Notes: generated by a model not told the origin, from the letters alone. 64,000 nucleotides of DNA from a bacterium (GCA_031441465.1 JANOEP010000009.1:64001-128000), one strand, 5' to 3'; positions 4,752 through 32,878 are shown, counted from the first letter of the stretch. Program-made: numbers and translations.

Positions 4752-5929
4752 GGTCCGCGGACGGGATCGGTGTCATCGGCGCGGACGGCGAACGATTCGC
4801 AGCCCGGTCCGCGCGCGAAGAGCGGCACCAGCGAGTTGGTGTGCTCGCCGGTGAGGAACACGTAGGCCGGCACGGGACCGGCGAGGTGGCCGCTCTCGTG
4901 GTCCGCGGTGACCACCACGAGCGTCTCCGCGAGCAGGCCGCGCTCGTCGAGCCACGCCGTCGCGGCCTCGACCGCCCGGTTGAAATCCGTCATCTCCTCG
5001 ATCATGCGCCCGACCTGTCGGTCGTGGCTGGCCCAGTCCACGGCGCCCCCTTCGATCAGCAGGCAGAAGCCGTCGGGATCCTCGTCGACGACGTTCAGGG
5101 CGGCCAGCGCCATCTCGGCCAGGGTCGGAACGTCGGCGTTGCGCGGCACGGCGAAGGGTGCCGCGAGCGGATCGCCGTCGCGCTGCTCCTGCAGCGTCTC
5201 GCGCACCGGCGGCACGCCGACCACGCGGCGCGGCGTCGCGCCGCGGGCCAGGGCCTGGAACTGCTCGCGCGTCGTGACCAGGGACCAGGGACCCGCGGAC
5301 TCCGCACCGAGCCGGCCGGCGACGAGCGAATCCCAGATCGCGGCGCCGCCGACCCGGCCGTAGTCCGCGACATCGCGCCGGTGCCCGCCGTCGTCGTACC
5401 AGGGATGCCCGGCGCCCATGACGACGTCCAGCTCGCCGCCGCCGAGCATGAGTCGCGCGATCTCCAGGTAGGCGCCGCGGTCCCGGCAGGAGACGGCGAA
5501 ACCCGCCGGCGTGGCGTGGACGAACGGCACCGTGGTGACGACGCCGGTCGACTTCCCGGCCGCGGCCATGGCCTGGGCGAGCGTCACCAGCGGATCGCCG
5601 CGGGGATCGACCGCCAGCCGCCCGTTGACCGTCTTGACCCCGGTGGTCATGGCGGTGATCGCGGCGGCCGAATCGGTGGGGTCGCGGTCGCACCAGGCGG
5701 GGTCGCGCCACGTCGGCTCGGGATCGTAGGCCCCGCCGTCGGGCGGGGTGCTCATCGCGAGGCGCACCGGCCAGCCGTCGTACACCTGGCGGCCGGTCGG
5801 ATCCGTCTCGTGGAGACGGGCGGCCTCGAAGTGCAGGAACCCCGCGCCGTCGGCGACGAACAGCACGATGTTGCGCGGGGCGGGCGTGCCCGCGGCCAGG
5901 CAGAGCGAGACGAGCAGGTGCGTGAACAC
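4628..5929 (-). CDS. Alkaline phosphatase, secreted
   Basis: NIVLFVADGAG, TDSAAAITAMTTGVKT (catalytic Ser), HATPAGF, EGGAVDWASH and VVTADHE motifs. GTG start with AAAGGAG RBS and a signal peptide. Confidence 0.9.
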   Translation of the reverse strand: MFTHLLVSLCLAAGTPAPRNIVLFVADGAGFLHFEAARLHETDPTGRQVYDGWPVRLAMSTPPDGGAYDPEPTWRDPAWCDRDPTDSAAAITAMTTGVKTVNGRLAVDPRGDPLVTLAQAMAAAGKSTGVVTTVPFVHATPAGFAVSCRDRGAYLEIARLMLGGGELDVVMGAGHPWYDDGGHRRDVADYGRVGGAAIWDSLVAGRLGAESAGPWSLVTTREQFQALARGATPRRVVGVPPVRETLQEQRDGDPLAAPFAVPRNADVPTLAEMALAALNVVDEDPDGFCLLIEGGAVDWASHDRQVGRMIEEMTDFNRAVEAATAWLDERGLLAETLVVVTADHESGHLAGPVPAYVFLTGEHTNSLVPLFARGPGCESFAVRADDTDPVRGPYLDNCELGAVLVGAAGSVVGLRSIRTEGPAGSNMNTGRDD

Positions 5930-6020
5930 GGGACTCCTTTCGGGATCCGGTGAATGTAGTCGCTGATTGCGAAAAATTCGAGAAGCGTCGGTCTCGCGCC
6001 TCACCGGTCCGGTCACACGC

Positions 6021-6053
6021 GAAAGGCCGCCCCCTCGGCGGGAGCGGCCTTCG
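6021..6053 (-). terminator. GC-rich hairpin downstream of the choice-of-anchor-E-like gene
   Basis: aaggccgc...gcggcctt inverted repeat ~20 nt after the stop at 6072. Confidence 0.45.
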
Positions 6054-6071
6054 CTCGCCGGCGGCCGGCGA

Positions 6072-6740
6072 TCACCGGTACATGCTCTTGACGTTGCCCC
6101 AAGCGGTCTGCTCGGCGGGAACGCCGCACTCCATGTAGTTGTAGGTGACCGAGTAGCTGACGTAGGCCTGCAGGCCGATCGACCAGCTGTTGGCGCCGAA
6201 CTGGGAGGACATGTTGAAAGCCGTGCAGGGGAGGTTGACCGTGCCGGCGCCCGTGAACAGCGCCAGGTCGAGGGCGCTCGCCAGGCAGACCGTGTTGCCG
6301 ACGGACACGTCCAGCCCGGAGTGGGTCACGCCGGAGGTGCCGGCGTAGTCGGCGACGCCGTCGTAGGACGTGACCGGACCCGAAAAGGCCTGCAACGGCT
6401 GGAGCACCATCACCGGCGACAGGTCGGGCCGCCGGAGCGTGACCTGGACCTCGAAGTTGCTCGTCACGGTCGTGGGGAAGGTCTGGATGTTCTCGAAGCT
6501 CAGGAAACCGGCCCCATGCGCCGTCGCCTGCACGCAGACGGAGGTCAGGCACTGGCCGGGAAGGTCGAACTGCGGCACGGACTGGTAGGGGAACGTGTAC
6601 TGGCTCGCGCCGAGATAAGGCGACGGACCGTACACGCTGCTGTGCGTGATGGACGCGGCCCGGGCGCCGGCGGCGTTGATCGTCAGCGACAGGCACACGG
6701 CGAGGGCGAGACGGGCGGCGACCGATTTCATGATGGTCAT
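6072..6740 (-). CDS. Secreted choice-of-anchor-E-like protein with C-terminal AEQTAWGNVKSMYR motif
   Basis: Signal peptide, then VPQFD...SYDGVADYAGTSG...DLALFTGAGTV...SVTYNY, resembling the choice-of-anchor E domain. Confidence 0.65.
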   Translation of the reverse strand: MTIMKSVAARLALAVCLSLTINAAGARAASITHSSVYGPSPYLGASQYTFPYQSVPQFDLPGQCLTSVCVQATAHGAGFLSFENIQTFPTTVTSNFEVQVTLRRPDLSPVMVLQPLQAFSGPVTSYDGVADYAGTSGVTHSGLDVSVGNTVCLASALDLALFTGAGTVNLPCTAFNMSSQFGANSWSIGLQAYVSYSVTYNYMECGVPAEQTAWGNVKSMYR

Positions 6741-6921
6741 GGCAACTCTCCCATGATTGAAGACCGCGAACGGGAACTGCACCTGATATACCGGGCAAGG
6801 CGACCGGATCGTAGGGGTTGCTCTCCGCGGGGCGATCCCACTGCGGAGAGAGGAAAAGGGTAGGCCCAATGAAGATTGATCGCCACCTGTTTAGGGTGGG
6901 AGGTGGGCGGGCGGGAATCGG

Positions 6922-8394
6922 CTACAGCGCCTTCGCGACGATCCGGAAATGCCGCCCGGTGATGGCGAGGGTGACCGCCAGGCCGATCCGGTCGGGATGC
7001 TGCAGGAGTGTCGTGGTGAGGAATCCCCAGTAGGCGCGGCGGCCGCGTTCGCAGATCCCGATGCGCCACAACGACTTCATCAGCGCCCGCAGGTCGCTCC
7101 GCGACAGGTGCGCGCGCGGCCCGCGGGATCGGTGGTTCTCCAGGAGGATCCGGGCACGGCGGTAGTAGGTGTTCGGCTCGTAGAGCCGGCGCATCAGGAG
7201 GCGGTAGTTCTCGATCAGGAACTCGCGGTCCAGCTTCGGCTCGAAGTTGAAGGTCGCCTTGGTGTTGTCGCCGCCGCCGTCGCCCCGCAGGCGCCCCTCG
7301 CCCGCCAGCCGCCGGTAGAGGCGGCTGCGCGGGATGGCCTGGAGCATCCCGACCATCGCGGTGACCACGCCGGCGTTCTGGATGAACTCGAACTGCCGCT
7401 GGAAGATGTCGGCGCGGTCGCTGTCGAAGCCCACGATGAAGCCGCCCATGACCTCCAGACCGGCGTGCTGGATGCGGCGCACGGCCGTCGGCAGGTCGCT
7501 GCGCAGGTTCTGCGTCTTGTGGCACTCCTGCAGGCTCTCGGCACAGGGGGTCTCGATGCCCAGGAACACTTTCTTGAAGCCGGCTTCGACCATCAACTGC
7601 AGCAGCTCCGGGTCCTCGGCCATGTTCACCGAGGCCTCGGTCAGGAACGTCATCCGCGCGCGCGTCGCGCGGCGCCAGCCGATCATCGCGCGCAGCAGCT
7701 CCTTGCAGCGCCGCGGGTCGCCCACGAAGTTGTCGTCGACCAGGAAGGTCTGGCCCCGCCAGCCGCGCAGGCGCAGCACGTCCAGCTCGGCGAGGAAACG
7801 CTCGGGCGTCTTGTAGCGGGGCTTGTGCCCGTTCAGCGCCACGACGTCGCAGAACTCGCAGTCGAAGGGGCAGCCGCGGCAGGACTGCACCGACATCGTC
7901 GCGTACTCCCGCAGGTCGATCAGGTCCCAGCGCGGCAGGGGCGTCAGCGACAGGTCGGGGTAGCGCGGCGCCTCGTACAGGAGCTGGACGCGTCCCGCTT
8001 CCATGTCGGCGACGAGCGCCGCCGCTGTCTCCTCCGCCTCGCCGACCACGACGTGGTCGACGCCCGGATTGTCGGCCGCGTCGGTGGTGAACAGCGGCCC
8101 GCCGCCGATCACCGGCTTGCCCGCCGCGCGGCAGGTCCGGATCACCGCGAGCAGCGAGTCGCGCTGCGCCAGCATGGCGCTGACGAGCACGTAGTCCGCC
8201 CAACGCACGTCGGTGGCCGGCAGGGGCCGGCAGTTCAGGTCGACGACCTTCAGCTCCCAGTCGCGCGGCAGCAGGCCGGCGAGGGTCAGCAGTCCCAGGG
8301 GGGGATTCGAAGCGCGCTTGCCCACGAAGGGCAGGGCGTTGCGGAAGCTCCAGAAGGTATCCGGGGTGCGCGGTTCGACCAGCAGGACCCGCAT
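6922..8394 (-). CDS. B12-binding domain radical SAM protein (DUF4070 type)
   Basis: PPLGLLTLAGLLP, GEAE, RGCPFDCEFC (CxxxCxxC), VDDNF, VFLGIET and GFIVGFDSD motifs. Confidence 0.9.
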   Translation of the reverse strand: MRVLLVEPRTPDTFWSFRNALPFVGKRASNPPLGLLTLAGLLPRDWELKVVDLNCRPLPATDVRWADYVLVSAMLAQRDSLLAVIRTCRAAGKPVIGGGPLFTTDAADNPGVDHVVVGEAEETAAALVADMEAGRVQLLYEAPRYPDLSLTPLPRWDLIDLREYATMSVQSCRGCPFDCEFCDVVALNGHKPRYKTPERFLAELDVLRLRGWRGQTFLVDDNFVGDPRRCKELLRAMIGWRRATRARMTFLTEASVNMAEDPELLQLMVEAGFKKVFLGIETPCAESLQECHKTQNLRSDLPTAVRRIQHAGLEVMGGFIVGFDSDRADIFQRQFEFIQNAGVVTAMVGMLQAIPRSRLYRRLAGEGRLRGDGGGDNTKATFNFEPKLDREFLIENYRLLMRRLYEPNTYYRRARILLENHRSRGPRAHLSRSDLRALMKSLWRIGICERGRRAYWGFLTTTLLQHPDRIGLAVTLAITGRHFRIVAKAL

Positions 8395-19878: not shown

Positions 19879-22800
19879 ATGAACGACGACCGCACCTATT
19901 CGCTGGGACCCGACGACGACCGCACCCTGCCGCTCGGACCCGCCGGCGGCGGCGCCCCAGGCGAGGACGTCGGCTCGGTGATCGGACCCTACAAGCTGCT
20001 GCGCCGCATCGGCGAGGGCGGCATGGGCGAGGTCTTCGAGGCCGAGCAGACCGAGCCCATCCGCCGTCGCGTCGCGTTGAAGGTCATCAAGCAGGGCATG
20101 GACACCCGCGCGGTGGTGGCCCGCTTCGACGCCGAGCGCCAGGCGCTCGCCCTGATGGACCATCCCTGCATCGCCAAGGTCTTCGACGCCGGCGCCACCG
20201 ACCGCGGTCGCCCCTTCTTCGTCATGGAGTACGTCGAGGGCGAGTCGATCACCGACTACTGCAACCGCCGGCGCCTGGGCACCGACGAACGACTCGAGCT
20301 GTTCGTGCGCGTCTGCGAGGGCGTGCAGCACGCCCACCAGAAGGCCGTGATCCACCGCGACCTGAAGCCATCGAACATCCTGGTCGCGGAGGTCGACGGC
20401 CGGCCCGCGCCGAAGATCATCGATTTCGGCGTGGCCAAGGCCACGACGCAGCGCCTGACCGAGATGACGATGTTCACCGAGCTGGGCCAGCTGATCGGCA
20501 CGCCCGAGTACATGAGCCCCGAGCAGGCCTCCCTGACCGACGACGACATCGACACGCGCACCGACGTCTACGCCCTGGGCGTGGTGCTGTACGAGTTGCT
20601 GTCCGGCGCGCTGCCCTTCGAGTCGCGCGAACTGCGCAAGGCCGGCTACGAGGCGATCCGCAAGATCATCCGCGAGCAGGACCCGCCGCGGCCGAGCACG
20701 CGCTTCAGCGGCCTCGGGGAGCGCAGCACGAGCGTGGCCGATGCCCGCGGCATCGCGCCGAAACGGCTGCAGAGCGAGCTGCGCGGCGACCTGGACTGGA
20801 TCACGATGAAGGCGCTGGAGAAGGACCGCGATCGGCGCTACGAGACGGCCAACGGCCTGGCGGCCGACGTGCGGCGCCACCTGCGCAACGAGCCGGTGAG
20901 CGCCGGGCCGCCGAGCGCGTCGTACCGCCTGGGCAAGCTGGTGCGGCGCAACCGCGGCACCTTCGCCGCGCTGGGGGCGATCGCGGTCGTGCTGGTGGCG
21001 GCCGTGGTGGTCAGCTCGGTCATGTACGTGCGCGCCGAGCGGGCGTCGCGCCTGGCCCGCAGCGAGGCCAGCAAGGCCACGCAGGTGTCGCGCTTCCTGG
21101 GGGACATGCTCGGCGGCGTGGGGCCGCACGTGGCCCAGGGGCGGGACACGAAGATGCTGCGCGCGATCCTCGACGAGACCGCCGCGCGCGTCGGCAAGGA
21201 GCTGGCGGACCAGCCCGAAGTGGAGGCGGCGCTGCGGCTGCAGCTGGGGCTCACCTACCGCCAGCTCGGCGAGTACGAGGCCGCGCAGGAGCAGATCGAC
21301 CGCGTGCGCGAACTCCAGACGGCGTTCGACCGCGCGTCGCCCTTCCCCGCCAAGTTCCTGGTGGAGGCCGGCTCGCTGGCCTGGAACCGCGGCGAGATGA
21401 AGGACGCCGAGGCGACGTACCGGCAGGCCCTGCTGCGCATGGCGGACGCGGCGCCGGTCGATTCGGTCGCCTGGGCCGAGGCCTCCCTCTACCTGGCGAA
21501 CGTCCTGCAGGAGCAGGGTCACTACGTCGAGGCCGACTCGCTGATGCACCTCTCCCTCGCGATCTACCGCGGCCTGCCGCAGGAGTCCGACGCCCTGGCG
21601 GTGAACCTCAACAGCCTGGGCAACCTGTCGCGCTACCAGGGCGACCTTCCGGCCGCCGAAGGCTTCTACAACGAAGCCCTGGCGGTCCACCGCCGGGTGC
21701 TGGGCGACGCCCACCCGTTCGTGGCCACCGACCTGCACAACCTGGGCCGGCTGCTGGACGCGATGGGGCGCAGCGAACAGGGCGAGAAGCTGCTGCGCGA
21801 GGCGATCGCGATCCACGGACGGGTCTTCGACGGCCCCCATCCGGACACGGCGATCCTGCTGCGCTCGCTCGCGGAGCTCATCATGAGTTCCGAACGCTTC
21901 GACGAGGCGGATTCGCTCGCGCAGGCCGCCTGCGCCATGACGCGGACGATCTACGGCGACCACAACGAAAACACCGTGCACGCGCTGATCTCGGTGGCCG
22001 AGGTGCAGTCGCGGCGGGGGAACCTCGCGGCGGCCGAAGCGACCTTCGCCGGACTCGTGACGACCTGCCGCGACACCGGGATCACCGATCCCGGCCTGCT
22101 GTCGACCGTGCTTTACCGACTGGCGACGACGCAGCTGAAGCAGGGGCGCAACCGGGACGCGCTGGCGCCCTTCGCCGAGGCGGTCGAACTCTCGACCGCG
22201 GTCAGCGGCGCGGACCATCCCAACACCCTGCTGTTCCGCAACGACTACGCCCGCGCGCTGGCCGGACTGGGGGACGACGAGGCGGCGGTGCAGCAGCTCC
22301 GCGTGGTCCTCGCCGCCCGGGAGCGGGTCCTGGGCCCGGGGCACCCCGAAACATCGATCACGCGCGTGGATCTGGGACGCAGCCTCCGGCGCCTGGGCAA
22401 GCCGGAGGAAGCCGAGGCTCAGCTGCGTCAGGGGCGCGACGACTACGGGGCCGCCAAGGGGAACGACCATCCCGGGCGCTGGATCGGCACGGTGCACCTG
22501 GCCGGCGCGCTGATCGACCTGAAACGGTTCGACGCCGCCGAACAGGAGTTGCAGGCCGCCGAGGAGTTCTACCTGGAGCATTCCGGGGCGGGCAGCGTCG
22601 AAACCCGGTGGGTCCGCGTGAGGCTTTCCAATCTCTACCTGAGGGCGGGGCGCCGGGCCGACGCCGACCGCATGATGGCCCTGGCCCTGGACGGGACGCC
22701 GGGTCCCGTCGATGCGCGGACCCGCGGTCGGGCCCTGAACGACCGGGGCGAGTCCTGGTTGGCCATGGACAAGCCGGACGAGGCCGAGAAATCCCTGAAG

Positions 22801-22938
22801 GAAAGCTTCAAGATCCTCGAAGCGGAACTGGGCGCCACCAACGGTGACACCCAGTACGCCATGCGCCTGCTGGCCACGACCTGCGACCGTCTGGGCCGGC
22901 CGCGGGACGCGGCCGCCTGGCGCGCACGGCTGCAGTGA
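19879..22938 (+). CDS. Hanks-type Ser/Thr protein kinase with TM segment and C-terminal TPR repeats
   Basis: IGEGGMGEV, VALKVIK, HRDLKPSN, DFG, GTPEYMSPEQ and DVYALG; a TM helix; TPR repeats such as HPFVATDLHNLG and HPDTA. Confidence 0.95.
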   Translation: MNDDRTYSLGPDDDRTLPLGPAGGGAPGEDVGSVIGPYKLLRRIGEGGMGEVFEAEQTEPIRRRVALKVIKQGMDTRAVVARFDAERQALALMDHPCIAKVFDAGATDRGRPFFVMEYVEGESITDYCNRRRLGTDERLELFVRVCEGVQHAHQKAVIHRDLKPSNILVAEVDGRPAPKIIDFGVAKATTQRLTEMTMFTELGQLIGTPEYMSPEQASLTDDDIDTRTDVYALGVVLYELLSGALPFESRELRKAGYEAIRKIIREQDPPRPSTRFSGLGERSTSVADARGIAPKRLQSELRGDLDWITMKALEKDRDRRYETANGLAADVRRHLRNEPVSAGPPSASYRLGKLVRRNRGTFAALGAIAVVLVAAVVVSSVMYVRAERASRLARSEASKATQVSRFLGDMLGGVGPHVAQGRDTKMLRAILDETAARVGKELADQPEVEAALRLQLGLTYRQLGEYEAAQEQIDRVRELQTAFDRASPFPAKFLVEAGSLAWNRGEMKDAEATYRQALLRMADAAPVDSVAWAEASLYLANVLQEQGHYVEADSLMHLSLAIYRGLPQESDALAVNLNSLGNLSRYQGDLPAAEGFYNEALAVHRRVLGDAHPFVATDLHNLGRLLDAMGRSEQGEKLLREAIAIHGRVFDGPHPDTAILLRSLAELIMSSERFDEADSLAQAACAMTRTIYGDHNENTVHALISVAEVQSRRGNLAAAEATFAGLVTTCRDTGITDPGLLSTVLYRLATTQLKQGRNRDALAPFAEAVELSTAVSGADHPNTLLFRNDYARALAGLGDDEAAVQQLRVVLAARERVLGPGHPETSITRVDLGRSLRRLGKPEEAEAQLRQGRDDYGAAKGNDHPGRWIGTVHLAGALIDLKRFDAAEQELQAAEEFYLEHSGAGSVETRWVRVRLSNLYLRAGRRADADRMMALALDGTPGPVDARTRGRALNDRGESWLAMDKPDEAEKSLKESFKILEAELGATNGDTQYAMRLLATTCDRLGRPRDAAAWRARLQ

Positions 22939-23950: not shown

Positions 23951-24044
23951 CGCTGGTCTCCTCGCTGGAGTGACATGGGGGTCGGTTTCACCCCGGCAGT
24001 GTAGGCGTGGCGGGGGCGAGCCGCTACGGAACCGGGGAATACGC

Positions 24045-24076
24045 GGAACGGGAGAGCCGCGAGGCTCCCCCGTTCC
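24045..24076 (-). terminator. Strong hairpin between the small DxDGDG gene and the ADH gene
   Basis: ggaacggg-ag-agcc-gcga-ggct-cc-cccgttcc; no clear U tract. Confidence 0.45.
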
Positions 24077-24102
24077 TTCGCGATCGGGTGCCGGCGAACC
24101 GG

Positions 24103-24543
24103 TCAGTGGCGACCGCCGGAAACCGCACGGGCGCCCTTGGTCGGGCACGTGCCGGGACCGAAGCCGGTGCCGTCGCCGGGGCCGGTGCCGCCGTTGCCGG
24201 TGCCGTCGCCCGGGCCGTAGCCGCAGACGCCGCCGGCCATCGACTTCCACATGGCCTTCACACGGTACAGAAAACCTTCCGTGTTCAGCGTGCAGGTCGG
24301 GTCGCAGTCACCCTCGCCGGGGCCGAAGCGGGAGCCCGTGCCGTCGGCGGGCGGAACGTAGTCGGGATCGAGCCCGTTGGGGATGCCGTCGCCGTCGACG
24401 TCCGGGGCCAGATCGTTGAAGCCGTCGCCGTTCTCGTCGACGAAGCCGCCGACGCCGTACCCGTACGACTGGGCGGAGGCCAGGGAAGCGAGGGCCGTCA
24501 GCGCGAGGATCGCGAGCACGGTGAGTGCGAGACGTGTCTTCAT
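24103..24543 (-). CDS. Small secreted Asp/Gly-rich protein (DxDGDG motifs, GPGDGTG repeats)
   Basis: AAGGAG RBS, signal peptide (ASAQS), FVDENGDGFNDLAPDVDGDGIPNGLDPDY, GYGPGDGTGNGGTGPGDGTGFGPG. Confidence 0.8.
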   Translation of the reverse strand: MKTRLALTVLAILALTALASLASAQSYGYGVGGFVDENGDGFNDLAPDVDGDGIPNGLDPDYVPPADGTGSRFGPGEGDCDPTCTLNTEGFLYRVKAMWKSMAGGVCGYGPGDGTGNGGTGPGDGTGFGPGTCPTKGARAVSGGRH

Positions 24544-24601
24544 GGTGTTGCTCCTTCACATCTGCGTGGCTGTCGAGGCGAGGTCTTGTGAGCGGCCGAC
24601 C

Positions 24602-24619
24602 AAGCAGGAGGCGGGCCAA
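24602..24619 (-). promoter_or_regulatory. sigma54 -24/-12 promoter for 24103..24543
   Basis: Minus strand reads TTGGCCCGCCTCCTGCTT: GG-N10-GC with TGGC and TGCT context, ~60 nt above the start codon, next to an NtrC-family activator locus. Confidence 0.7.
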
Positions 24620-24719
24620 GTTCGCGGCACGGGTCCGACCGTCGTCGCAACACGTTGGCTCGCAGGTGATTGCCGTTGGCGGGCCGGCGCCGTCGCGACG
24701 CGGCGCCGGCCCGCCAACG

Positions 24720-24754
24720 CGACGATCTGGTCGAATCGTTCGACGAACCTCGTA
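24720..24754. promoter_or_regulatory. Putative upstream activator site (tandem CGAC-N6-GTCG-like boxes)
   Basis: CGACgatctgGTCG at 24720 and a second CGACGAA box 21 nt later; 16/18 identical to 27956-27973. Confidence 0.55.
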
Positions 24755-24862
24755 CCGCAAACGACCCTTGTGCTGCGGATAGGCGCGGGGTAAGGTGGCG
24801 CAGCCGGCGCCCTCGCCGTCCGTGCCGGCCCGCCCATCCCCCGTCGCGGAGCTTCTGCCACC

Positions 24863-26593
24863 GTGATCTTCCCCACCGGTCCCAGGCTCTGGCTGCTGCG
24901 CCCCGCCGTCGTCGTGGCGACGCTGGTGCTGGCGGGAGCCGTGTTCATCGCGACGACCGTGCTCGAGATCCGCAGCGCGCGCTCGACGCTCGTGCAGTTG
25001 ACGGTCGGCCACGCCGAGCAGATCCAGCGCGTGGTCGGCGAGAGCCAGGGGCACGCGCTCGCCGCATTCGAAGCCTGGGAGACGCAGGCCGGCGAACGCT
25101 TGCTGGCCCTGGCGGCGCTCGTGGATCGCCTCGTGCGGGACGAGCGGCGGCCGCAGGCGTTGCTCGACAGCATCGCGACCGCCAACAACCTGACCTGCCT
25201 GACGGTGCGCTGGCCGGACCGGCGCACCATCGCCGCGGCCTCCGCATCTCCCGGGGCCGTCGGCGAGGCCGCGTGCTGGGACGATCTCGAAGCGGCCGGC
25301 GTGTCGTCGCTGCGGCCGGGAGAGGCGCGCGTGCTGCGGGCGCCGGCGGACGACGGCGGCGGCTACCGCCTGATCGGCACGCGTCGGCGGTCCGACGGCG
25401 GCATCGTCTGCGCGGGGATGGACGCCGCCGTCCTGGCGGCCGAACGGCGGCGGATCGGACCCGGGCGCCTGCTGCAGGTGCTGGGCCAGAGCAGCGGCAC
25501 CGCCTTCCTGGCGCTGCAGGACGAGGGAGGGATCCTCGCGGCGACGCCCAACGTGGACCGGCTCTCCTCGCTGGCCGGCGACACGCTGCTGGCGCGGGTG
25601 ATGGCGACCGGAGTTCCGGCTTCGCGCGAGGTGGTGTTCGCGGATCACCGGGTGCTGGAGCAGGTGTCGCGGCTCGACGTGGCGGGTCGACCCGTGAGCC
25701 TGCTGCGCGTGGGCTTGGACCTGAGCGAGGTCGAGCGGCGGCAGCGCGAAATTGGCCGCAGCCTAGCCGTGCACTCCCTGCTGCTGCTGGCGGCGCTGGG
25801 CGCCGGCGCCGCCCTGCTGATCGCCAGCCGGCGCCTGACGGCCGCCCGCGCCGCGTGGGCGCTGGCGCGGCGGGAAGTCACGGCTCTCGAGGAGGAGCGC
25901 GCGCGGCGGGAGCGCAGCTTCGCCCTGGGCGAGCTGGCTTCGGGCGTGGCTCACGAGATCCGCAACCCGCTCAACGCGATCCACGTCGTCGCGCAGCGCC
26001 TCGGCCGCGAGTTCGTGCCGACGCAGGGCGAGGCGGAGTACCGGCAGCTGACCGGGACAGTGCGCGGCGAGGTCGGCCGCATCAACCGCATCGTCGAGCA
26101 GTTCCTGCGCTACGCCCGCCCGGCTGCGCCGAGCCTGCGCCCGACCGACGTCGCGGCGCTGGTGCGCGACGTCGTCACGCTCGTGCAAGGCCGGTTCGAG
26201 GCCAAGGGTGTCGGGATCGCCGTGACAACGCCCGAACGGCTGGACATCACCGCCGATCCGGACCTGCTGCGTCAGGCGCTGCACAACCTGCTCGACAACG
26301 CGCTGAGCGCCTGCCCGACGGGGGCGCGCACGGACGTCGAACTGCGGGCCGAAGGCGAGCGGATCCTGCTGACCGTCCGCGACACCGGCTGCGGCATCGC
26401 GCCGGCCGAACTGGGGCGCATCTTCAACCTCTACCACACCACCAAGCCGGACGGCACCGGGCTCGGGCTCGCCGTCGTCGACCAGGTCGCCGCGCAGCAC
26501 GGCGGGCGGGCGTCGGCCGAAAGCCGGCCGGGGCTCGGCTCGGCCTTCACCCTCGAGTTGCCGCTCGGCGGCGCGACGGAGGACGCACGATGA
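24863..26593 (+). CDS. Sensor histidine kinase (ZraS/HydH-like) with periplasmic domain
   Basis: Two TM segments; LGELASGVAHEIRNPLN (H box), NLLDNA, DTGCGI and TTKPDGTGLGL. Confidence 0.93.
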   Translation: MIFPTGPRLWLLRPAVVVATLVLAGAVFIATTVLEIRSARSTLVQLTVGHAEQIQRVVGESQGHALAAFEAWETQAGERLLALAALVDRLVRDERRPQALLDSIATANNLTCLTVRWPDRRTIAAASASPGAVGEAACWDDLEAAGVSSLRPGEARVLRAPADDGGGYRLIGTRRRSDGGIVCAGMDAAVLAAERRRIGPGRLLQVLGQSSGTAFLALQDEGGILAATPNVDRLSSLAGDTLLARVMATGVPASREVVFADHRVLEQVSRLDVAGRPVSLLRVGLDLSEVERRQREIGRSLAVHSLLLLAALGAGAALLIASRRLTAARAAWALARREVTALEEERARRERSFALGELASGVAHEIRNPLNAIHVVAQRLGREFVPTQGEAEYRQLTGTVRGEVGRINRIVEQFLRYARPAAPSLRPTDVAALVRDVVTLVQGRFEAKGVGIAVTTPERLDITADPDLLRQALHNLLDNALSACPTGARTDVELRAEGERILLTVRDTGCGIAPAELGRIFNLYHTTKPDGTGLGLAVVDQVAAQHGGRASAESRPGLGSAFTLELPLGGATEDAR

Positions 26594-27942
26594 CCGATGT
26601 GAGGGTGCTGATCGTCGACGACGAAGCGAACCAGCGCGAGGCGTTGGGCGGCTTCCTGCTGAAGCGGGGCTACGACGCCGTGCTCGCCGCGGACGGCGAG
26701 ACGGCGCTGCGCATCATCCACGACAGCATCGTGGACGTGATGCTCACCGACGTGCGCATGCCCGGCATGGACGGCGCCGAGCTGCTCGCGAGAGCGAGGG
26801 CGGCCAACCCCCTGCTCGAGGTGATCGTCATCACGGCCTTCGGCACGATCGCCGACGCGGTGGAGGCGATGAAGCGCGGCGCTTCCGGCTACATCACCAA
26901 GCCGATCGACCTCGACGACATCGAGCTGCAGGTCCAGAAGGCGGTGGAGCGGCGCCACCTGGTCTCGGAAGTGCGCGAGCTGCGCCGGCGGGTGGCGGCC
27001 CCGCACACGTTCGCCGGGATCGTGGCCGAAAGTCCGGCCATGACCGAGGCGCTGGACCTCGCGTCGCGGGCCGCCGCGACCGACGCCACCGTGCTGATCC
27101 GCGGCGAGAGCGGCACCGGCAAGGAACTCGTCGCGCGCGCGTTGCACCACGCCAGCGCCCGACGCGACGGCCCGTTCGTGGCGGTCAACTGCGCCGCCTT
27201 CGCCGCCACGCTGCTCGAAAGCGAGCTGTTCGGGCACGAGAAGGGCGCCTTCACCGGGGCCGACCGGCAGCGGGCCGGACGTTTCGAGTCGGCGACAGGC
27301 GGCACCCTGTTCCTCGACGAGATCGGGGATCTGCCCCAGCCGCTGCAGGTGAAGCTGCTGCGCGTGCTGCAGGAACGGACCTTCGAGCGTGTCGGCGGCA
27401 ACCAGACCCTGACCGCCGACGCGCGCATCGTGGCGGCCACCCACCGCGACCTCGAGCAGATGATCGCGGACGGAGCCTTCCGGCAGGACCTCTACTACCG
27501 TCTCGACGTGGTCAACATCCGCCTGCCGGGGCTGCGCGAGAGGCGGGCGGACATCCCGGCGCTCATCGAGCACTTCCGTCACAAGGCCGCGGCCCAGTAC
27601 GGCAAGTCGGTGGACGCGATCAGCCGCGAAGCCATGGACCTGCTGGTCAAGCACGATTACCCGGGCAACGTCCGCGAGCTGGAGAACCTGGTGACGCGCA
27701 TGATCGTGCTCGCCCGCAGCCCGATCGCGACGCTGTCCGACCTGCCGGGCGGCACGGGCGGGCAGGACACGCGACGGCTCGACGACTGCCGCGGCGACCT
27801 GCCGCGCTTCGTGGAGGAGGTCGAGAAGCGCGTCGTCCGCGAGGCCCTCGACGCGGCGGGCGGCAACCAGAGCCAGGCGGCGCGCGCGGTGGGCTTGACC
27901 GAGCGCAACCTGCGCTACAAGTTGCAGAAGTGGGGCTGGTAG
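26590..27942 (+). CDS. sigma54-dependent response regulator (NtrC/AtoC/ZraR family)
   Basis: Receiver domain (VDDE, DVRMPG, KP), GESGTGKE, ESELFGHEKGAFTGA, PGNVRELEN and a Fis-type HTH; ATGA overlap with the kinase. Confidence 0.95.
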   Translation: MTDVRVLIVDDEANQREALGGFLLKRGYDAVLAADGETALRIIHDSIVDVMLTDVRMPGMDGAELLARARAANPLLEVIVITAFGTIADAVEAMKRGASGYITKPIDLDDIELQVQKAVERRHLVSEVRELRRRVAAPHTFAGIVAESPAMTEALDLASRAAATDATVLIRGESGTGKELVARALHHASARRDGPFVAVNCAAFAATLLESELFGHEKGAFTGADRQRAGRFESATGGTLFLDEIGDLPQPLQVKLLRVLQERTFERVGGNQTLTADARIVAATHRDLEQMIADGAFRQDLYYRLDVVNIRLPGLRERRADIPALIEHFRHKAAAQYGKSVDAISREAMDLLVKHDYPGNVRELENLVTRMIVLARSPIATLSDLPGGTGGQDTRRLDDCRGDLPRFVEEVEKRVVREALDAAGGNQSQAARAVGLTERNLRYKLQKWGW

Positions 27943-27945
27943 TCG

Positions 27946-27980
27946 CGCCGGATTCGTCGAGGCGTTCGACGAAAACGTCG
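27946..27980. promoter_or_regulatory. Putative upstream activator site (tandem CGAC-N6-GTCG-like boxes)
   Basis: CGCCggattcGTCG (27946) and CGACgaaaacGTCG (27967), 21 nt apart; also contains the palindrome TTCGTCGA-N5-TCGACGAA. Confidence 0.55.
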
Positions 27981-28056
27981 AGCGCCGACCGCGACGCGCA
28001 CTGGGATGGTCCCCGTATCTGTAGACAAGACAACGAAATGAGTGCGCCTCCCCATC

Positions 28057-28073
28057 GGGGCCGCAAAGTTGCT
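28057..28073 (+). promoter_or_regulatory. Possible sigma54 -24/-12 promoter for 28218..30007
   Basis: GGGGCCGCAAAGTTGCT: GG-N10-GC spacing with a TTGCT -12 box; the -24 context is less canonical. Confidence 0.55.
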
Positions 28074-28217
28074 GGGAGTCGCCACAAGGTCCTCCGAGGG
28101 ACTGCGGTGAGCTACCCAACAACGAGTGGACCCCCTCGCACTTGGTAGCGATCCGTGAAGAGGGGGCGGGGAGAGGCGAGGCTCTTCCGCCCCCTCCGAC
28201 AATCTAAGGGGATGCCG

Positions 28218-28889
28218 ATGTTCAAGACATTCATCACGATGGGATTCGTCGCCGCCGCGACCGTCGCGGCGGCCGCCGATCCGTCCGGACCGCCCGTGCC
28301 GGCCGCCGGCTGGGTCGATCAGGACCGGGACCAGCGCCACGACCTGTTCCGGGACGCCGACGGTGACGGCACCAACGACGTCGACGGGCGCCGCTACGAT
28401 CACCCGTTCGCCTGGTCCGACGCCGACGGCGATCTGCTCAACGATCACTACCGCGACGCCGACGGCGACGGCGTCAATGATCTCGAGACCGGCTTCCATG
28501 ACGCCGATGCCGACGGACACGACGACAACGTGCTCGACATGAACGGCGACGGTTGCAACGACATCACGGGCCTGGCCTACTCCCGCAACGACCTGCACGG
28601 GGACCGCTACGGGTTCGTGCACGACGGCGCCTTGTGGGTGGACGAAGACGGCGACGGCTTCCCGGACGACCGGATGGGACCGGGCCACGAGGGGCGCACG
28701 GGACAAGAGGACCGCTTCCAGGATCACGACGGCGACGGCCTGGCCGACGGATGCTGGTTCCAGGACGGCGGCTTCCAGCACCACCGCGCGAACACCGGAC
28801 ACGACGGCACCGGACACGGTGGCACCGGACACGGCGGATCAGGAAACGGCGGCGGCGGCGGCTTCCCGACCGGACCGGGACCCCGGTGA
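28218..28889 (+). CDS. Secreted Asp-rich repeat protein (about 9-10 DxDGDG-type motifs, His/Gly tail)
   Basis: Signal peptide; DADGDG, DMNGDG, DEDGDG, DHDGDG motifs; tail GHDGTGHGGTGHGGSG; AAGGGG RBS. Confidence 0.8.
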   Translation: MFKTFITMGFVAAATVAAAADPSGPPVPAAGWVDQDRDQRHDLFRDADGDGTNDVDGRRYDHPFAWSDADGDLLNDHYRDADGDGVNDLETGFHDADADGHDDNVLDMNGDGCNDITGLAYSRNDLHGDRYGFVHDGALWVDEDGDGFPDDRMGPGHEGRTGQEDRFQDHDGDGLADGCWFQDGGFQHHRANTGHDGTGHGGTGHGGSGNGGGGGFPTGPGPR

Positions 28890-30007
28890 CGTTGACGACC
28901 ATGCGGCGCGCCGGCCTGCTGTTCGCGGCGGTGTTCGCCTGCCTGCCGGCCGCCCTGCAGGCGCAGTCGGCCTGGACCGCCGGAGCCGGCGCCTCGCTGG
29001 TCGCGACCGACAACGTGTTCGGCACCGAGTCTTCGCCCGGGGACGACGTCCTCGACGGTCGCGGCTGGCTGCTCTGGACGCCCGCCGACGCTCTGCAGCT
29101 GGGCGCCTCCGGGCGCCTGGTCCGCTTCCTCGACAACCCGGATCTGAATCACGGCTACCTCCAGGCTTCCGCCGAAGTCCAGCGGGCGACGCCGGGCGCG
29201 CTCACACAATGGAAGGCCGGCCTGGCCGGCGCTCGGAGGTCCAACGAAGACCTCTACGCGTCCTACGACTTCCGGGAAGGCAGCGCCTACCTGTCCGCGA
29301 AACGCTACCTCGGCCCCAGCCTCACCGCCCAGATGCGGGCCGACACTTCGAAGCGGACCTACCCCGACTCCCCGGATGAGGACGCGCACCGGGTCTGGCT
29401 GTCCTTCCGGCTGCAACGCTCGCTGCCGTCGCGCACGAGCCTCGGTCTCGGCGCGCGCGCGGGATGGAAGGGCTACGCCACCGATCAGTCGGATCCGGCG
29501 GCGGCCTGGGAGGTCTCCGCACAGGCGGCCCAGTCGTTGTCGGCCAGGCTCGCCCTGCGCGCCTGGTGGTCGCACGCCCGGCTGTACGAGTACGGCGACG
29601 TCGCCGCGCAGCTCGCCGCGTTCGACAACCCCCTGCACGACGAATTTTCCGCCGACGGCCCCCGCCTCGGCGCGGCCCTGAAGGCGATCCTGCCCCGCAA
29701 CTGCCTCGCCGAGCTGTCCGCGGAACGGGCCTGGCTGGATTACCCCGGCCGCCCGCCGCAGGTCTACGATCCCGCGACGAACGAATTCCAGTTCGACGCC
29801 GACGAGCAGATCGTCCTGGGCCCCGGCGTACGGAGCGATTCGCTGTCGCGCGTCCGCCTCGATCTCGAACAACGCACCGCCGCGGCCCTGGGCGGCGCGA
29901 GTGTGAGCCTGTACGCTTCCGTCGAGTGGTCGCAGCGGACTTCCAACGATCTCTACTGGGAATGGAGCGGCTGGTCGGCGCAGGCAGGCGCGGCGATCGA
30001 GTACTGA
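28886..30007 (+). CDS. Putative outer-membrane beta-barrel protein
   Basis: GTGA overlap with the upstream stop; signal peptide (ALQAQS); alternating amphipathic strands; TDNVF N-terminal motif; C-terminal AQAGAAIEY ending in an aromatic residue. Confidence 0.7.
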   Translation: MTLTTMRRAGLLFAAVFACLPAALQAQSAWTAGAGASLVATDNVFGTESSPGDDVLDGRGWLLWTPADALQLGASGRLVRFLDNPDLNHGYLQASAEVQRATPGALTQWKAGLAGARRSNEDLYASYDFREGSAYLSAKRYLGPSLTAQMRADTSKRTYPDSPDEDAHRVWLSFRLQRSLPSRTSLGLGARAGWKGYATDQSDPAAAWEVSAQAAQSLSARLALRAWWSHARLYEYGDVAAQLAAFDNPLHDEFSADGPRLGAALKAILPRNCLAELSAERAWLDYPGRPPQVYDPATNEFQFDADEQIVLGPGVRSDSLSRVRLDLEQRTAAALGGASVSLYASVEWSQRTSNDLYWEWSGWSAQAGAAIEY

Positions 30008-30021
30008 CCGTGATCCGACAC

Positions 30022-30058
30022 GCGGCCCGGGGACGTTTCACCGCCGCCCCCGGGCCGC
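30022..30058. terminator. Hairpin between convergent genes
   Basis: gcggcccgggg...ccccgggccgc inverted repeat. Confidence 0.5.
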
Positions 30059-30068
30059 TTCCTTCGGG

Positions 30069-32342
30069 TCAGATCAACGGCATGTTGTCATAAGGCACCC
30101 CATGGTCCACGCAGAGGGACCACGCTGCGGGCCTGGCGGCGAGCCACGCCCGGGCCTTGGCGGCCGCGCCGGCCCACTCCACCTCGCGATCGGCCAGGTG
30201 CGTCTCGAGCGTCTGCAACGCCCACCTGGTGGCGACCACGGCGGCCGCCGTGACCGCATCCAGAGTGGTCAGGCTCCTCGCCTCCTGCTTCAGCTCCTGG
30301 AGCTTGGCGCCGACGGCCTTGGCCAGTTCCCTGGTGAGGAGCCAGGAGCCGTCCGCTTGCTGGGCCAGCATGAGTTGCATGAGCAGGTCCGGCTTGCCGG
30401 ACGCGACCTGTGTCCTTCTGCGACGAGGCGGTCCTGCGAGCTGCTCGGCATCCATCTTCCGGAACGCGCTGAACAGGGTTCTGTTCGCCTCGTGATCGGA
30501 ACCGGTGTCGAGATAGGCCTTGTAGACGATCGATTCGCACTCGTAAATCAGATGGCGCGAGTCCATCCCGCCCCACCCCCGCGTCAGCGCCACCGGCACC
30601 CGGCGCAGCTCGGCCGTCCCCTCGACGTGCGACTCCCGGTCCACGGCCACGAAACTGGTCAGGCTGGACATCACCTGGTAGGCGCAGGCCAGCTCGACGA
30701 TGCGCTTCTCGGGACCGCTGCGCTTGCGTTCTTTCTGGGCGGAGCCCGTGCGCGGCGGCGCCTCCTCCAGGTCGCGGATCGCCAGGCGGGCCATCAGGGC
30801 GGGCAGGCCGGCGTCGCTCGCGGCGACCTCCGACGTGTCCAGCGGCAGCGACCAGGACCGCACGTTCTCGCCGTCGCGGGCGCGCAGCGTCACGCTGCCC
30901 TCCCCCGCCCCGCGCAGCCGCGCCATCACCGTGAACTGCTCGCCGCCGAACAGCCGGTTGAGAATGCCGGGCGTCACCAGATCGGGCTGCAGGCCCTCCC
31001 ATTCCAGTTCGATGCCGGTCCAGGCCGGACCGCCCAGGCGCCCGAACATCCGCAACACCTTGGGTTCGATGCGCTCACCCGGGAAGACAAACTCCGCCGC
31101 GCCCCCGGTCGCGCGCGCCAGCCCGCGCACCAGGTGCTCCGAAGCGCCGCGGCCGATGCCGAAGGTGAACAGGCGCGTGCCCGGATGACTGCCGACCAGG
31201 TCGATGCACTGCTTCTCGTTGCCCACCTCGCCGTCGGTCAGCAGCAGGATGTCGCACCGGCGCCCGGCGCCCGCTTGCAGGATGTGCCGCAGCGGAGACA
31301 TCAGTTCCGTGCCGCCCAGGTCGGCGTTCATGGCCTGGATGGCCGCGGTGGCCTGGTCCAGCGTCGTCTGGTCGTAGGCGACGGCATGCGGGTAGAGGGA
31401 TTCGAAGCTCGAGCCGAAGCTCACCACGTTGAAGGAGTCGCCCGCCCGCAGGCTGCGCAGGCAGAGCAGCAGGGCGTTCTTGGCCTGCTCGATGCTCTCC
31501 CCGCTCATCGAGCCGGAGCGGTCGATCAGGAAGACGACCTCGCGCGCGACGCTCTCCGTCGCCGGCATCTCGGGCCGGAAATTCAGCAACGCCGCGAAGC
31601 CGCCGGTGGGGTCGGGCACCACCGTGACGCGCGGCTGGAAGGGATCCGACTGCCGGATGTTGAGCACGAAGTCCTGGTCCAGGGCCGTGGACTCGGCGGC
31701 CAGGGTGATCCCGGCCCGCATCCCGTCCAGGGTGATCGCCACGGGATGGCTCGGGCACTCGATGCCGCGCAGCGGCGACGCACCGGTGTAGGCCACGTCC
31801 AGGCGCAGGCCGTAGGGCACGCCCCCGGGCGCGACCGGCGGCGTGATGTGGTCGCGCTCGGACGGGTCCATCCCGGCTGCCTGATCGGCGGGGATGTAGC
31901 GCGGCGAGATGGTGGTGGGTAGGCTGAGGCGCACCCCGTCGGCCGTGGCGTCCAGCATGGTGGCGTACTCCAGGGTCACGGTCGCCTCGGCGCCCGGGGC
32001 CAGATTGCCGACGCTCACGGTGAAGATGTTCGGGCGATCCTGGTCCATCAGGAAGGCCTGGTGCCCGTCGGCGATGGCGTCGTCGTAGATCTCGAACGCC
32101 TTCTCCTTCTCCACGACGCGCCCGACGATGTGGCGGCCGTCCACCTCGATCACGAAGCCGCAGACGGCGCTGCTTTCCTCGAGCGGGAAGCTGTACACCG
32201 CCTCGATCGGGATGTCTTCCACGTTGCGGTAACGCTGACGCACCACGACCATGGCGGCGGTGTCGCGCGCGTCGACCTTGATCTCGACGCCCTGCAGAGG
32301 CACGGGCGCATGGTTCTTGCCGAACATTCCGTAGGTCTCCAT
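30069..32342 (-). CDS. VIT (vault inter-alpha-trypsin) + vWA domain protein
   Basis: PIEAVYSFPL...AVCGF (VIT), PTTISPRY, MIDAS motif DRSGSM, LGGTE, LTDGE, FTFGIG and TSFVAV. Confidence 0.9.
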   Translation of the reverse strand: METYGMFGKNHAPVPLQGVEIKVDARDTAAMVVVRQRYRNVEDIPIEAVYSFPLEESSAVCGFVIEVDGRHIVGRVVEKEKAFEIYDDAIADGHQAFLMDQDRPNIFTVSVGNLAPGAEATVTLEYATMLDATADGVRLSLPTTISPRYIPADQAAGMDPSERDHITPPVAPGGVPYGLRLDVAYTGASPLRGIECPSHPVAITLDGMRAGITLAAESTALDQDFVLNIRQSDPFQPRVTVVPDPTGGFAALLNFRPEMPATESVAREVVFLIDRSGSMSGESIEQAKNALLLCLRSLRAGDSFNVVSFGSSFESLYPHAVAYDQTTLDQATAAIQAMNADLGGTELMSPLRHILQAGAGRRCDILLLTDGEVGNEKQCIDLVGSHPGTRLFTFGIGRGASEHLVRGLARATGGAAEFVFPGERIEPKVLRMFGRLGGPAWTGIELEWEGLQPDLVTPGILNRLFGGEQFTVMARLRGAGEGSVTLRARDGENVRSWSLPLDTSEVAASDAGLPALMARLAIRDLEEAPPRTGSAQKERKRSGPEKRIVELACAYQVMSSLTSFVAVDRESHVEGTAELRRVPVALTRGWGGMDSRHLIYECESIVYKAYLDTGSDHEANRTLFSAFRKMDAEQLAGPPRRRRTQVASGKPDLLMQLMLAQQADGSWLLTRELAKAVGAKLQELKQEARSLTTLDAVTAAAVVATRWALQTLETHLADREVEWAGAAAKARAWLAARPAAWSLCVDHGVPYDNMPLI

Positions 32343-32365
32343 CTCGGCCTTCCTCCCTGCCGGGT

Positions 32366-32878
32366 TCACCGGCTCTCCCACCCGCGGCGCGCGCCCTTAT
32401 CCTCCCCGGACGGCATGTCCAGGTTGTCGCGCAGCAGCCGCACGATCCGCTCCAGCCTCGGCCCGACGGGCATCCCGGCGCCGGCGGCGAACTCCAGCCA
32501 GACGCCCTCGGTCACTTCCACCCGCGTCACCACCTGGCGCCGCAGCGCCGGAGGCTCGGGTGCGGACTCACACCTGAAGAGGCGCCCGACCTCGAGCTGC
32601 GGCCTTTCCGAGTAGGCCACCAGTTCCTCGCGCACCGAGGCCATCATCTCGGGGCCGTCCAGGAACGCCGCCATTTGCTCCAGGTGGACGCCCTCGCGCT
32701 GCAACTCGCGCACCTTCAGCAGACGATCCAGGTGCTGCAGGCCGTACTTCCCGCCCAGCCCGCGCCCCGCCGGCGGCGGCAGGAGGCCCAGTTGCACGTA
32801 GTAGCGCACCGTGCGCGGACTGACGTTCCCCAGGGCCGCCAACTCGGAGATGCTGTAGGTCTTTTCATTGTTCATCAT
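32366..32878 (-). CDS. MerR-type HTH transcriptional regulator
   Basis: YSISELAALGNVSPRTVRYYVQLGLLPPP...YGLQHLDRL...LQREG; C-terminal RVEVTEGVWL. Confidence 0.88.
   Translation of the reverse strand: MMNNEKTYSISELAALGNVSPRTVRYYVQLGLLPPPAGRGLGGKYGLQHLDRLLKVRELQREGVHLEQMAAFLDGPEMMASVREELVAYSERPQLEVGRLFRCESAPEPPALRRQVVTRVEVTEGVWLEFAAGAGMPVGPRLERIVRLLRDNLDMPSGEDKGARRGWESR

Follow-up and report, generated by a model that had tools for sequence, protein, structure and literature searches.

The 64,000-nucleotide (nt) stretch of DNA discussed here, hereafter the window, comes from an uncultured sediment bacterium whose phylum is known from metagenomes alone, and it is as rich in GC (70%) as the host genome (GC 0.70). 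Positions 24103-30007 of the window hold five genes, for two small secreted proteins (P1 and P2), a histidine kinase, an NtrC-type activator and an outer-membrane barrel, which the sequence analysis supports as an autonomous, self-contained sigma-54 (σ54) module. The genes, with product lengths in amino acids (aa), are:

24103-24543, minus strand: P1, a 146-aa secreted Gly/Asp-rich protein
24863-26593, plus strand: sensor histidine kinase with two membrane segments, a predicted periplasmic tandem-PDC sensor of ~260 aa, HisKA and HATPase_c
26590-27942, plus strand: NtrC-family σ54 activator with REC, AAA+ (with GAFTGA) and HTH_8
28218-28889, plus strand: P2, a 223-aa secreted, very acidic protein
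28886-30007, plus strand: predicted outer-membrane barrel of 373 aa, or of 368 aa from the ATG at 28901

An earlier note on this DNA had described a two-component pair between two outward-pointing units, and all five genes were found where it had placed them. The start of the activator gene overlaps the kinase stop codon by four bases (ATGA). The note had also proposed that P2 is translationally coupled to the barrel, which agrees with the overlap between the GTG start of the barrel gene and the P2 stop codon; the database gene call begins 15 nt later, at the ATG at 28901 (368 aa), and the gap between the two genes is at most 11 nt whichever start is used. No description of such a module was found in the literature searched, which left most subscription journals outside its coverage, and within that range the claim that no described system has this composition stands.

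Related loci were collected by a scan with the barrel alignment, at one genome per species, which gave 15 loci. Synteny, whose absence had been named beforehand as a refuter, was found: the five genes keep the same order and orientation in all ten loci that reach far enough, four others that are cut by a contig end keep activator-P2-barrel, and the remaining one is a barrel fragment. The sites identified around these genes are:

24604-24618, minus strand: σ54 promoter of P1, TGGCCCGCCTCCTGC, with TGGCCC at -24 and CTGC at -12
28058-28073, plus strand: σ54 promoter of the P2-barrel operon, GGGCCGCAAAGTTGCT, with GGGCCG at -24 and TTGCT at -12
24719-24744, minus strand: enhancer 1, GTCGA-N5-TCGAC-N6-GTCGc, made of three half-sites; 11/11 loci have one mismatch or none
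27956-27981, plus strand: enhancer 2, GTCGA-N5-TCGAC-N6-GTCGA, starting 14 nt past the activator stop codon
28014-28043, no strand assigned: AT-enriched tract (GC 0.40, against 0.70 for the genome) in the spacer from enhancer 2 to the promoter
24768-24796, plus strand: candidate sigma-70 (σ70)-type promoter of the kinase-activator operon, TTGTGC-N17-TAAGGT, a conserved element
24674-24719, no strand assigned: perfect inverted repeat, with arms of 19 nt around an 8-nt loop, in the stretch from enhancer 1 to the P1 promoter

A GG-N10-GC promoter had been proposed before each unit, and both were found in place and are conserved among relatives. On the P1 side the form TGG(C/T)CC-N5-(A/C)TGC is present in 11/11 aligned upstream regions, and on the P2 side GG-N10-GC is kept in 14/15 loci, with TG at -24 in the remaining one (L014). 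That locus, from a long-read-type assembly, also has an activator that aligns as three frame-shifted pieces (5709-7054, with the TG promoter at ~7172), and is either an assembly error or a decaying copy. The genome encodes rpoN (Sigma54_DBD, 214.5 bits, contig C54).

Both units were also said to share an upstream palindrome, and this proved correct. The sequence TTCGTCGA-N5-TCGACGAA occurs at 27953-27973 with no mismatch and at 24727-24747 with two, and it is significant on its own, as there are six window matches at ≤3 mismatches against 0.54 expected and none of 100 shuffles reached six. Its exact core, GTCGA-N5-TCGACGAA, is found at three places in the genome, the two module sites and one on another contig (C61); the latter lies inside a long coding frame and was rejected as a target. 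When the loci are compared, the enhancer is seen to be a three-part site, GTCGA-N5-TCGAC-N6-GTCGA. Enhancer 1 is always 124-127 base pairs (bp) upstream of the -24 element of P1 (11/11 loci). Enhancer 2 directly follows the activator stop codon in 15/15 loci, with no mismatch in 14 and one mismatch in one, and it lies 100-102 bp from the P2 promoter in 12 of them and 120-122 bp from it in three.

When metagenomes were scanned with the P2 alignment, 57 loci were obtained, and the parts were located in them by profile searches. In six of these that are low in GC (L029, L032, L033, L034, L035 and L047) the enhancer and TGGCAC-N5-TTGC/TTGA precede a P1-type gene, and a partial enhancer site is present in another low-GC locus (L052). 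That the same pair of sites turns up in DNA so unlike the window in composition is the best evidence for the three-part site as the enhancer of the activator. Across the genome, the three-part pattern at ≤2 mismatches gave 244+246 matches, mostly coding, versus 42+43 for a reversed control, and a combined scan for promoter and half-site gave 294 matches that are mostly meaningless; neither scan produced a convincing further target of the module.

The AT-enriched tract between enhancer 2 and its promoter is a possible bending or IHF-type site; the lowest GC of any 30-nt segment there is 0.20-0.47 in 12/15 loci and 0.53-0.63 in the other three. The 19-nt inverted repeat is specific to this genome: none of the related loci showed it, and it does not recur as a dispersed element. 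Before the kinase operon, no conserved σ54 site (GG-N10-GC) was seen when 11 upstream regions were read. A σ70-like element, TTGT(C/G)N-N17-(T/C)ANSRT (N20 in one locus), is present 78-130 nt before the kinase start in 11/11 loci, this pattern having been written after the sequences had been seen.

By its domains, the activator can be placed among the NtrC-family bacterial enhancer-binding proteins: it matches the Pfam models Response_reg (2.6e-28), Sigma54_activat (7.1e-74), AAA_lid_14 and HTH_8 (7e-14), and the GAFTGA loop, the contact for σ54, is readable in its translation. Its NCBIfam scores are 486.3 bits for AtoC (cut-off 714), 446.2 for NtrC (558.6) and 431.7 for ZraR (760), all of them below the cut-offs. 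The kinase has HisKA and HATPase_c (Pfam) and also stays below the NCBIfam cut-offs, with 215.8 bits for ZraS (479) and 196 for AtoS (646). The ZraS model aligns kinase residues 277-571 to profile positions 172-454 of 460. The predicted structure of the sensor (pLDDT 83) has a long helix followed by two PDC units, and its Foldseek matches are the sensors of HK1s-Z16 (3lif), PctA, LuxQ, Tlp3 and KinD (E 2.6e-6 to 1e-4, TMq 0.27-0.46); no Pfam dCache match was found for it. The sensor is modelled as a tandem-PDC (dCache-like) fold and not as a ZraS-like one, so the earlier description of the kinase as ZraS-like can be kept for the transmitter half and has to be dropped for the sensor, which the ZraS model leaves unmatched.

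A comparison with ZraP-ZraSR of Escherichia and Salmonella brings out both likeness and difference. There too, a kinase and a σ54 activator lie beside a divergent, activator-driven gene for a small periplasmic protein, and zraSR has its own σ54 promoter (PMC4987338). In addition, the ZraS, AtoS, ZraR and AtoC models give the best or near-best scores for the kinase core and the activator of the module. However, the module misses all equivalog cut-offs (NCBIfam), its sensor is a predicted tandem-PDC fold of ~260 aa outside the ZraS model, its effectors are not of the CpxP/Spy/ZraP type (Pfam), it has a second target operon, with the barrel, its kinase operon is preceded by a σ70-like element and by no conserved σ54 promoter that could be seen, and the sequence of its enhancer differs. 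The likeness to zraP-zraSR that the earlier note had drawn therefore holds as a parallel of layout, but the cut-offs, sensor and effectors speak against membership.

The products of the two target units are secreted proteins rich in Asp and Gly, much as had been predicted; P2 carries ~eight loops of the DxDGDG type and P1 carries two. P1 begins with a signal-peptide-like segment that ends in ASA, with Q as the next residue. It contains a single double DxDGDG loop (FVDENGDGFNDLAPDVDGDGIPNGLDPDY), and the motif PGDGTG is repeated in its Gly-rich tail. This genome has only one copy of P1, and 670 of 1124 candidates are relatives of it at E≤1e-3. P2 has a hydrophobic N-terminus, its loops are of the DxDGDGxND type, and its tail is rich in Gly and His; after residue 22 it contains 41 Asp and 43 Gly, and it has 64 relatives. 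The Asp and Gly positions of the loops are invariant in the aligned relatives of P2 (25) and P1 (31). The homology of the two proteins extends over 60 columns, which take in both the signal peptide and the first double loop (hhalign 98.3%, E 1.8e-14), and from this alignment they can be called paralogues. In two related loci (L011:2667-3657 and L016:2517-3685), two tandem P1 paralogues lie upstream of the kinase gene.

DxDxDG is the defining motif of a class of calcium-binding loops. From the DxDGDG motif alone, P1 and P2 may be proposed to bind divalent cations, with Ca2+ as the default guess. The repeated Dx(D/N)GDGxxD loops of P1 and P2 resemble those of bacterial thrombospondin-type-3 and dockerin repeats, and the P2 profile aligns weakly to the TSP3 repeats of 5wtl (E 0.4) and to a dockerin (E 0.17); unlike in those repeats, the loops are paired 3-4 residues apart, without the dockerin helices and without the TSP3 Cys pattern. 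Searches of P1 against Pfam and NCBIfam gave no match at E≤1, and those of P2 against Pfam, NCBIfam and the Protein Data Bank (PDB) gave no family, the Pfam match to ACC_epsilon (E 0.054) being a chance one. When 25 relatives of P2 were compared with Pfam nothing consistent emerged (Excalibur in two, best E 0.19). Look-alikes in the Atlas were unnamed clusters plus leads to TSP3_bac and MJ0753_N, all below 0.9; the TSP3_bac cluster stood at 0.85-0.86, and 35% of its members carry the domain. A literature search on DUF5320 and MJ0753 found nothing useful. That the flanking proteins lie outside characterised families was borne out for P1, P2 and the barrel, none of which has a significant match in Pfam, NCBIfam or the PDB; the PDB matches of one profile (A3) are to Gly-Ser linkers.

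Besides its signal peptide and 16 strands, the barrel has two long loops that are conserved, L6 and L7, and an aromatic residue at the C-terminus. In its structural model, which agrees with the beta-barrel predicted beforehand (16 strands, mean pLDDT 81.8), strand 1 begins at residue 30, just past the signal peptide. A VIA-align search of 48,161 chains ranked CdiB (Z 22.3 and 21.7) and FhaC (21.3) on top, with porins from 19.1 down, and the CdiB and FhaC alignments have a root-mean-square deviation of 2.9-4.0 over 269-287 residues; Foldseek returned many barrels and clearly favoured none (AlgE with TMq 0.52-0.55, PgaA 4y25). No match to ShlB, Bac_surface_Ag or SlipAM was found in Pfam at E≤1. 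A weak match to TIGR03016 (E 0.009, 15 bits against a cut-off of 90.85) was rejected. The family is small, with 158 representatives at E≤1e-3 among 1.84 billion; of 46 distant relatives, 41 have no Pfam match, two pass the SlipAM cut-off and a third reaches E 0.0055, and the other two match DUF481 and OMP_b-brl.

Among known outer-membrane systems, TpsB proteins such as FhaC and CdiB share with the barrel its 16 strands, a gene beside that of the secreted protein it would serve, and, joining strands 11 and 12, a long loop of high conservation, which would correspond to the L6 loop of the Omp85 family. Unlike TpsB, the barrel lacks POTRA domains, an N-terminal plug helix and a ShlB or Bac_surface_Ag match, and its partner is only 146-223 aa long, lacks a TPS domain and is encoded first. 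The Slam (type XI) barrels of the SlipAM family (PF04575) likewise stand beside a small secreted partner, and the SlipAM cut-off is passed by 2/46 of the barrel's distant relatives. A Slam barrel is built of 14 strands, comes with a TPR domain and serves a cargo that has a C-terminal beta-barrel domain; none of these is seen in the module, and the window barrel has no SlipAM match. Exporters of polyanionic polymers, of the AlgE, PgaA and BcsC type, give Foldseek matches of similar rank (AlgE and PgaA); the lumen of AlgE is rich in Arg, and that of the barrel also seems rich in conserved Arg. However, no polysaccharide synthesis genes lie near the module, and the conserved neighbour is an acidic protein and not a polymerase.

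The distribution of these genes also bears on the barrel. Its profile matches 40/208 genomes of the phylum, all in one family, and P1 occurs in 59/208. P2 and its 5' leader (see below) are found in the same 18/91 genomes of the family, which belong to four genera; each genome has one copy of both, arranged leader-P2-barrel, with the barrel directly after P2 in 18/18. In the 22 genomes with weaker barrel matches, a P1 homologue lies directly upstream on the same strand in 21, the exception being at a contig edge, so that the barrel stands behind a P1- or P2-type gene in 39/40 genomes. Sister modules from other genera of the same family read kinase-activator-P1-barrel in 12/14 fetched loci; these (L103-L113 and L116; for example L109:5470-5720) have a repeated palindrome of another sequence, TCGCAG-N5-CTGCGA, which is followed by an AT-rich tract and a σ54 promoter. 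Among the metagenome loci a P2-like gene is followed by a barrel in 13, and the low-GC members include kinase-activator-P1-P2-barrel (L029 and L047) and P1-P2-barrel (L025, L026 and L030). Because the pairing of the barrel with an acidic protein is so well conserved, a physical link between the two is likely.

Three low-GC loci (L032:4431-5903, L034:3722-5758 and L035:3665-5134) also contain a gene for a secreted protein of 490-680 aa with Big_2 and a C-terminal FlgD_ig, which sits between P1 (or the promoter) and P2. A complex prediction for P2 (21-223) and the barrel (27-373) gave 0.01, 0.50 and 0.12 against a mark of 0.32; the fold of the partner is uncertain, and the result counts neither way.

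Between the P2 promoter and its gene lies a conserved RNA segment:

28084-28217, plus strand: P2 5' leader of ~135 nt with three hairpins, conserved and structured
28160-28196, plus strand: last leader hairpin, with the invariant loop GCGAGG (28176-28181)

The invariant GCGAGG is 116-123 nt from the GG at -24 in the 14 loci measured. Three groups of leader sequences share the three-hairpin layout (z -1.9 to -3.5). In hairpins 2 and 3, 90.4% of cells are paired versus 81.8% in shuffles (0/500 reach this), ten pairs have changes on both sides (2/500 shuffles reach this) and slid controls pair 49-62%; these figures are inflated, since the structure was taken from the same, mutually related sequences. 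A covariance model finds 28104-28199 in the window and one site in each of 18/91 family genomes, always just upstream of P2. A search against Rfam 15 gave seven weak matches at E≤10 in 24000-30100 and none within 28073-28217. The leader is a candidate for a new cis-regulatory RNA, single-copy and limited to four genera. On the other side of the module, the 5' untranslated region (UTR) of P1 (~24570-24580) keeps in 11/11 loci a CCTCG(C/T) that is exactly complementary to the leader GCGAGG, placed 9-12 nt into a UTR stretch that itself starts 8 nt past the GC at -12; duplex energies between the P1 5' UTR and the P2 leader were no better than those of shuffles (z -1.4 to +0.8, 11 loci).

Genes that flank the module, namely a Ser/Thr kinase with TPR, a VIT-vWA protein and a MerR regulator, are common to the closest relatives only, within the genus. 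The first, upstream at 19879-22938, encodes a Ser/Thr protein kinase of 1019 aa whose long tail is TPR-like, and is conserved only within the genus. On the other side, the gene for a MerR-family regulator (32366-32878, minus strand) overlaps the start of one for a 770-aa VIT and vWA protein (30069-32381, minus strand), a pair retained in the two closest relatives only. In one related locus (L008:2387-3992), an insertion of ~1.3 kb separates the P1 enhancer region from the kinase gene; its 366-aa open reading frame has no Pfam match, and despite the insertion the locus keeps the enhancer, the promoter and the kinase promoter element.

These features can be assembled into a working model, an envelope module driven by σ54 with cation-binding effectors and a dedicated barrel partner, to which we lean by a little and no more; its regulatory half is well supported by the sequence comparisons. 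In this model, a periplasmic signal, which may be a metal or envelope stress as had been proposed, would cause the kinase to phosphorylate the activator, which would assemble on the three-part site, and bending of the DNA over the AT-rich spacer would bring it to RpoN-containing RNA polymerase at both promoters. The kinase operon would be transcribed from the weak σ70-type promoter beside enhancer 1, and activator bound there may damp it. P1 and P2 would reach the periplasm via Sec and bind divalent cations (Ca2+ being the default guess), and the barrel, with its TpsB-like geometry, no POTRA and an apparently Arg-rich lumen, would serve these polyanionic proteins as a dedicated partner in the outer membrane, bringing them to the cell surface most probably as a conduit or an anchor. 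The partner role is suggested by very strong gene linkage, by barrel geometry and by charge complementarity. The leader would add a second, post-transcriptional control on P2 and the barrel, and the physiological output would be cation management at the envelope or surface.

Several observations weigh against this model. The σ54 pattern by itself is not enriched in the window (40 matches versus 58.8 expected), and because it is not enriched in such GC-rich DNA the two promoter sites stand on their conservation. The σ70-type promoter fits 6/12 consensus positions in the window, and a consensus scan finds none at threshold. For the effectors, models of calcium repeats in Pfam (TSP_3, TSP3_bac, EF-hand and dockerin) miss P1 and P2 at E≤1 or E≤10, and the PDB hints for the P2 profile (dockerin at E 0.17, OmpA-TSP3 at E 0.4) are all sub-threshold. 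For the barrel, TpsB proteins lead ordinary porins by only ~2-3 Z units, no POTRA domain was found in it and no TPS domain in P1 or P2, and the rough count of 20 Arg/Lys versus 11 Asp/Glu at lumen-facing strand positions was made from strand alternation and not from coordinates. Finally, the linkage is not universal: a P2-like gene with room downstream occurs without a barrel at E≤1e-3 in L043, L044, L049 and L051, and also in L038, where only 0.7 kb of sequence lies downstream, and two sister loci of one genus (L114 and L115) have P1-barrel without a kinase or activator within ~6 kb.

Alternatively, the barrel could be an inducible porin, a plain diffusion or ion channel, with P1 and P2 acting as periplasmic cation buffers or as chaperone-like analogues of ZraP and Spy, and no export. 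The ranking of the 16-strand porins OprB and OmpM1 (Z 19.1-18) just under the TpsB barrels, the lack of a POTRA or plug domain, and the resemblance of the layout to zraP-zraSR (PMC4987338) are all consistent with such a porin. It would need no P1- or P2-type gene ahead of it, yet 39/40 genomes have one; the very conserved L6 and L7 and the estimate of an Arg-rich lumen fit a dedicated partner better; and P1 and P2 lack a CpxP/Spy/ZraP-type domain, which leaves the porin a doubtful alternative. We regard with equal doubt the proposal that P1 is mainly a feedback accessory of the kinase, binding the tandem-PDC sensor in the manner of ZraP, CpxP, DbfQ and QseG, and that the output consists of P2 and the barrel only. 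It is in keeping with the position of the small secreted P1 next to the kinase (divergent here, directly after the two-component genes elsewhere), with the presence among the fold matches of LuxQ-type tandem-PDC sensors, which act via a periplasmic partner, and with reported precedents (PMC4160245; PMC12714742; PMC6075780). The four-gene sister modules, where the P1 homologue replaces P2 directly upstream of the barrel, and the paralogy of P1 and P2 point instead to a shared effector role.

Less probable than either is a calcium-dependent surface or matrix layer, for adhesion, biofilm formation or mineral nucleation, in which P1 and P2 would be structural acidic repeat proteins displayed by the barrel, with no ion management. 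Such a layer would suit the weak resemblance to dockerin and OmpA-TSP3 repeats, the secreted Big_2 and FlgD_ig protein between P1 and P2 in three low-GC loci, and the labels sediment and biofilm on sequencing runs that contain module DNA, the first two of which may be its source, but at 146 and 223 aa P1 and P2 are small and lack any adhesin or anchoring domain, and neither the window nor any of the 14 closest loci has the Big_2 gene. More speculative again, and improbable as it stands, is a stronger form of the conduit idea, that P1 or P2 and the barrel are an unrecognised export pair without POTRA, in which the polyanionic protein would pass through an Arg-lined 16-strand barrel and fold with Ca2+ outside, under a σ54 two-component switch and, in four genera, a leader RNA gate that may itself sense an ion. 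It is very hard to believe that the five genes are chance neighbours and that the promoter and palindrome matches are noise of GC-rich DNA. σ54-like strings are indeed common in the window, and less strict half-site patterns have hundreds of matches across the genome, but the synteny, the fixed spacing and the recurrence in low-GC lineages contradict this explanation.

The σ54-driven envelope module provides a testable circuit, with a defined enhancer and two promoters at fixed spacing, in a phylum known only from metagenomes, and together with the sister system, which has another enhancer, it forms a natural pair for analysis of how activators and their sites co-evolve. It also defines three protein families without annotation, of which P1 has hundreds of members in several phyla and P2 and the barrel are small, and it adds a candidate cis-regulatory RNA outside Rfam. 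The near-obligate pairing of the barrel with an acidic protein suggests a dedicated outer-membrane partnership and possibly a new export route. If the signal is indeed calcium or another cation, the module would represent a new type of bacterial cation response.

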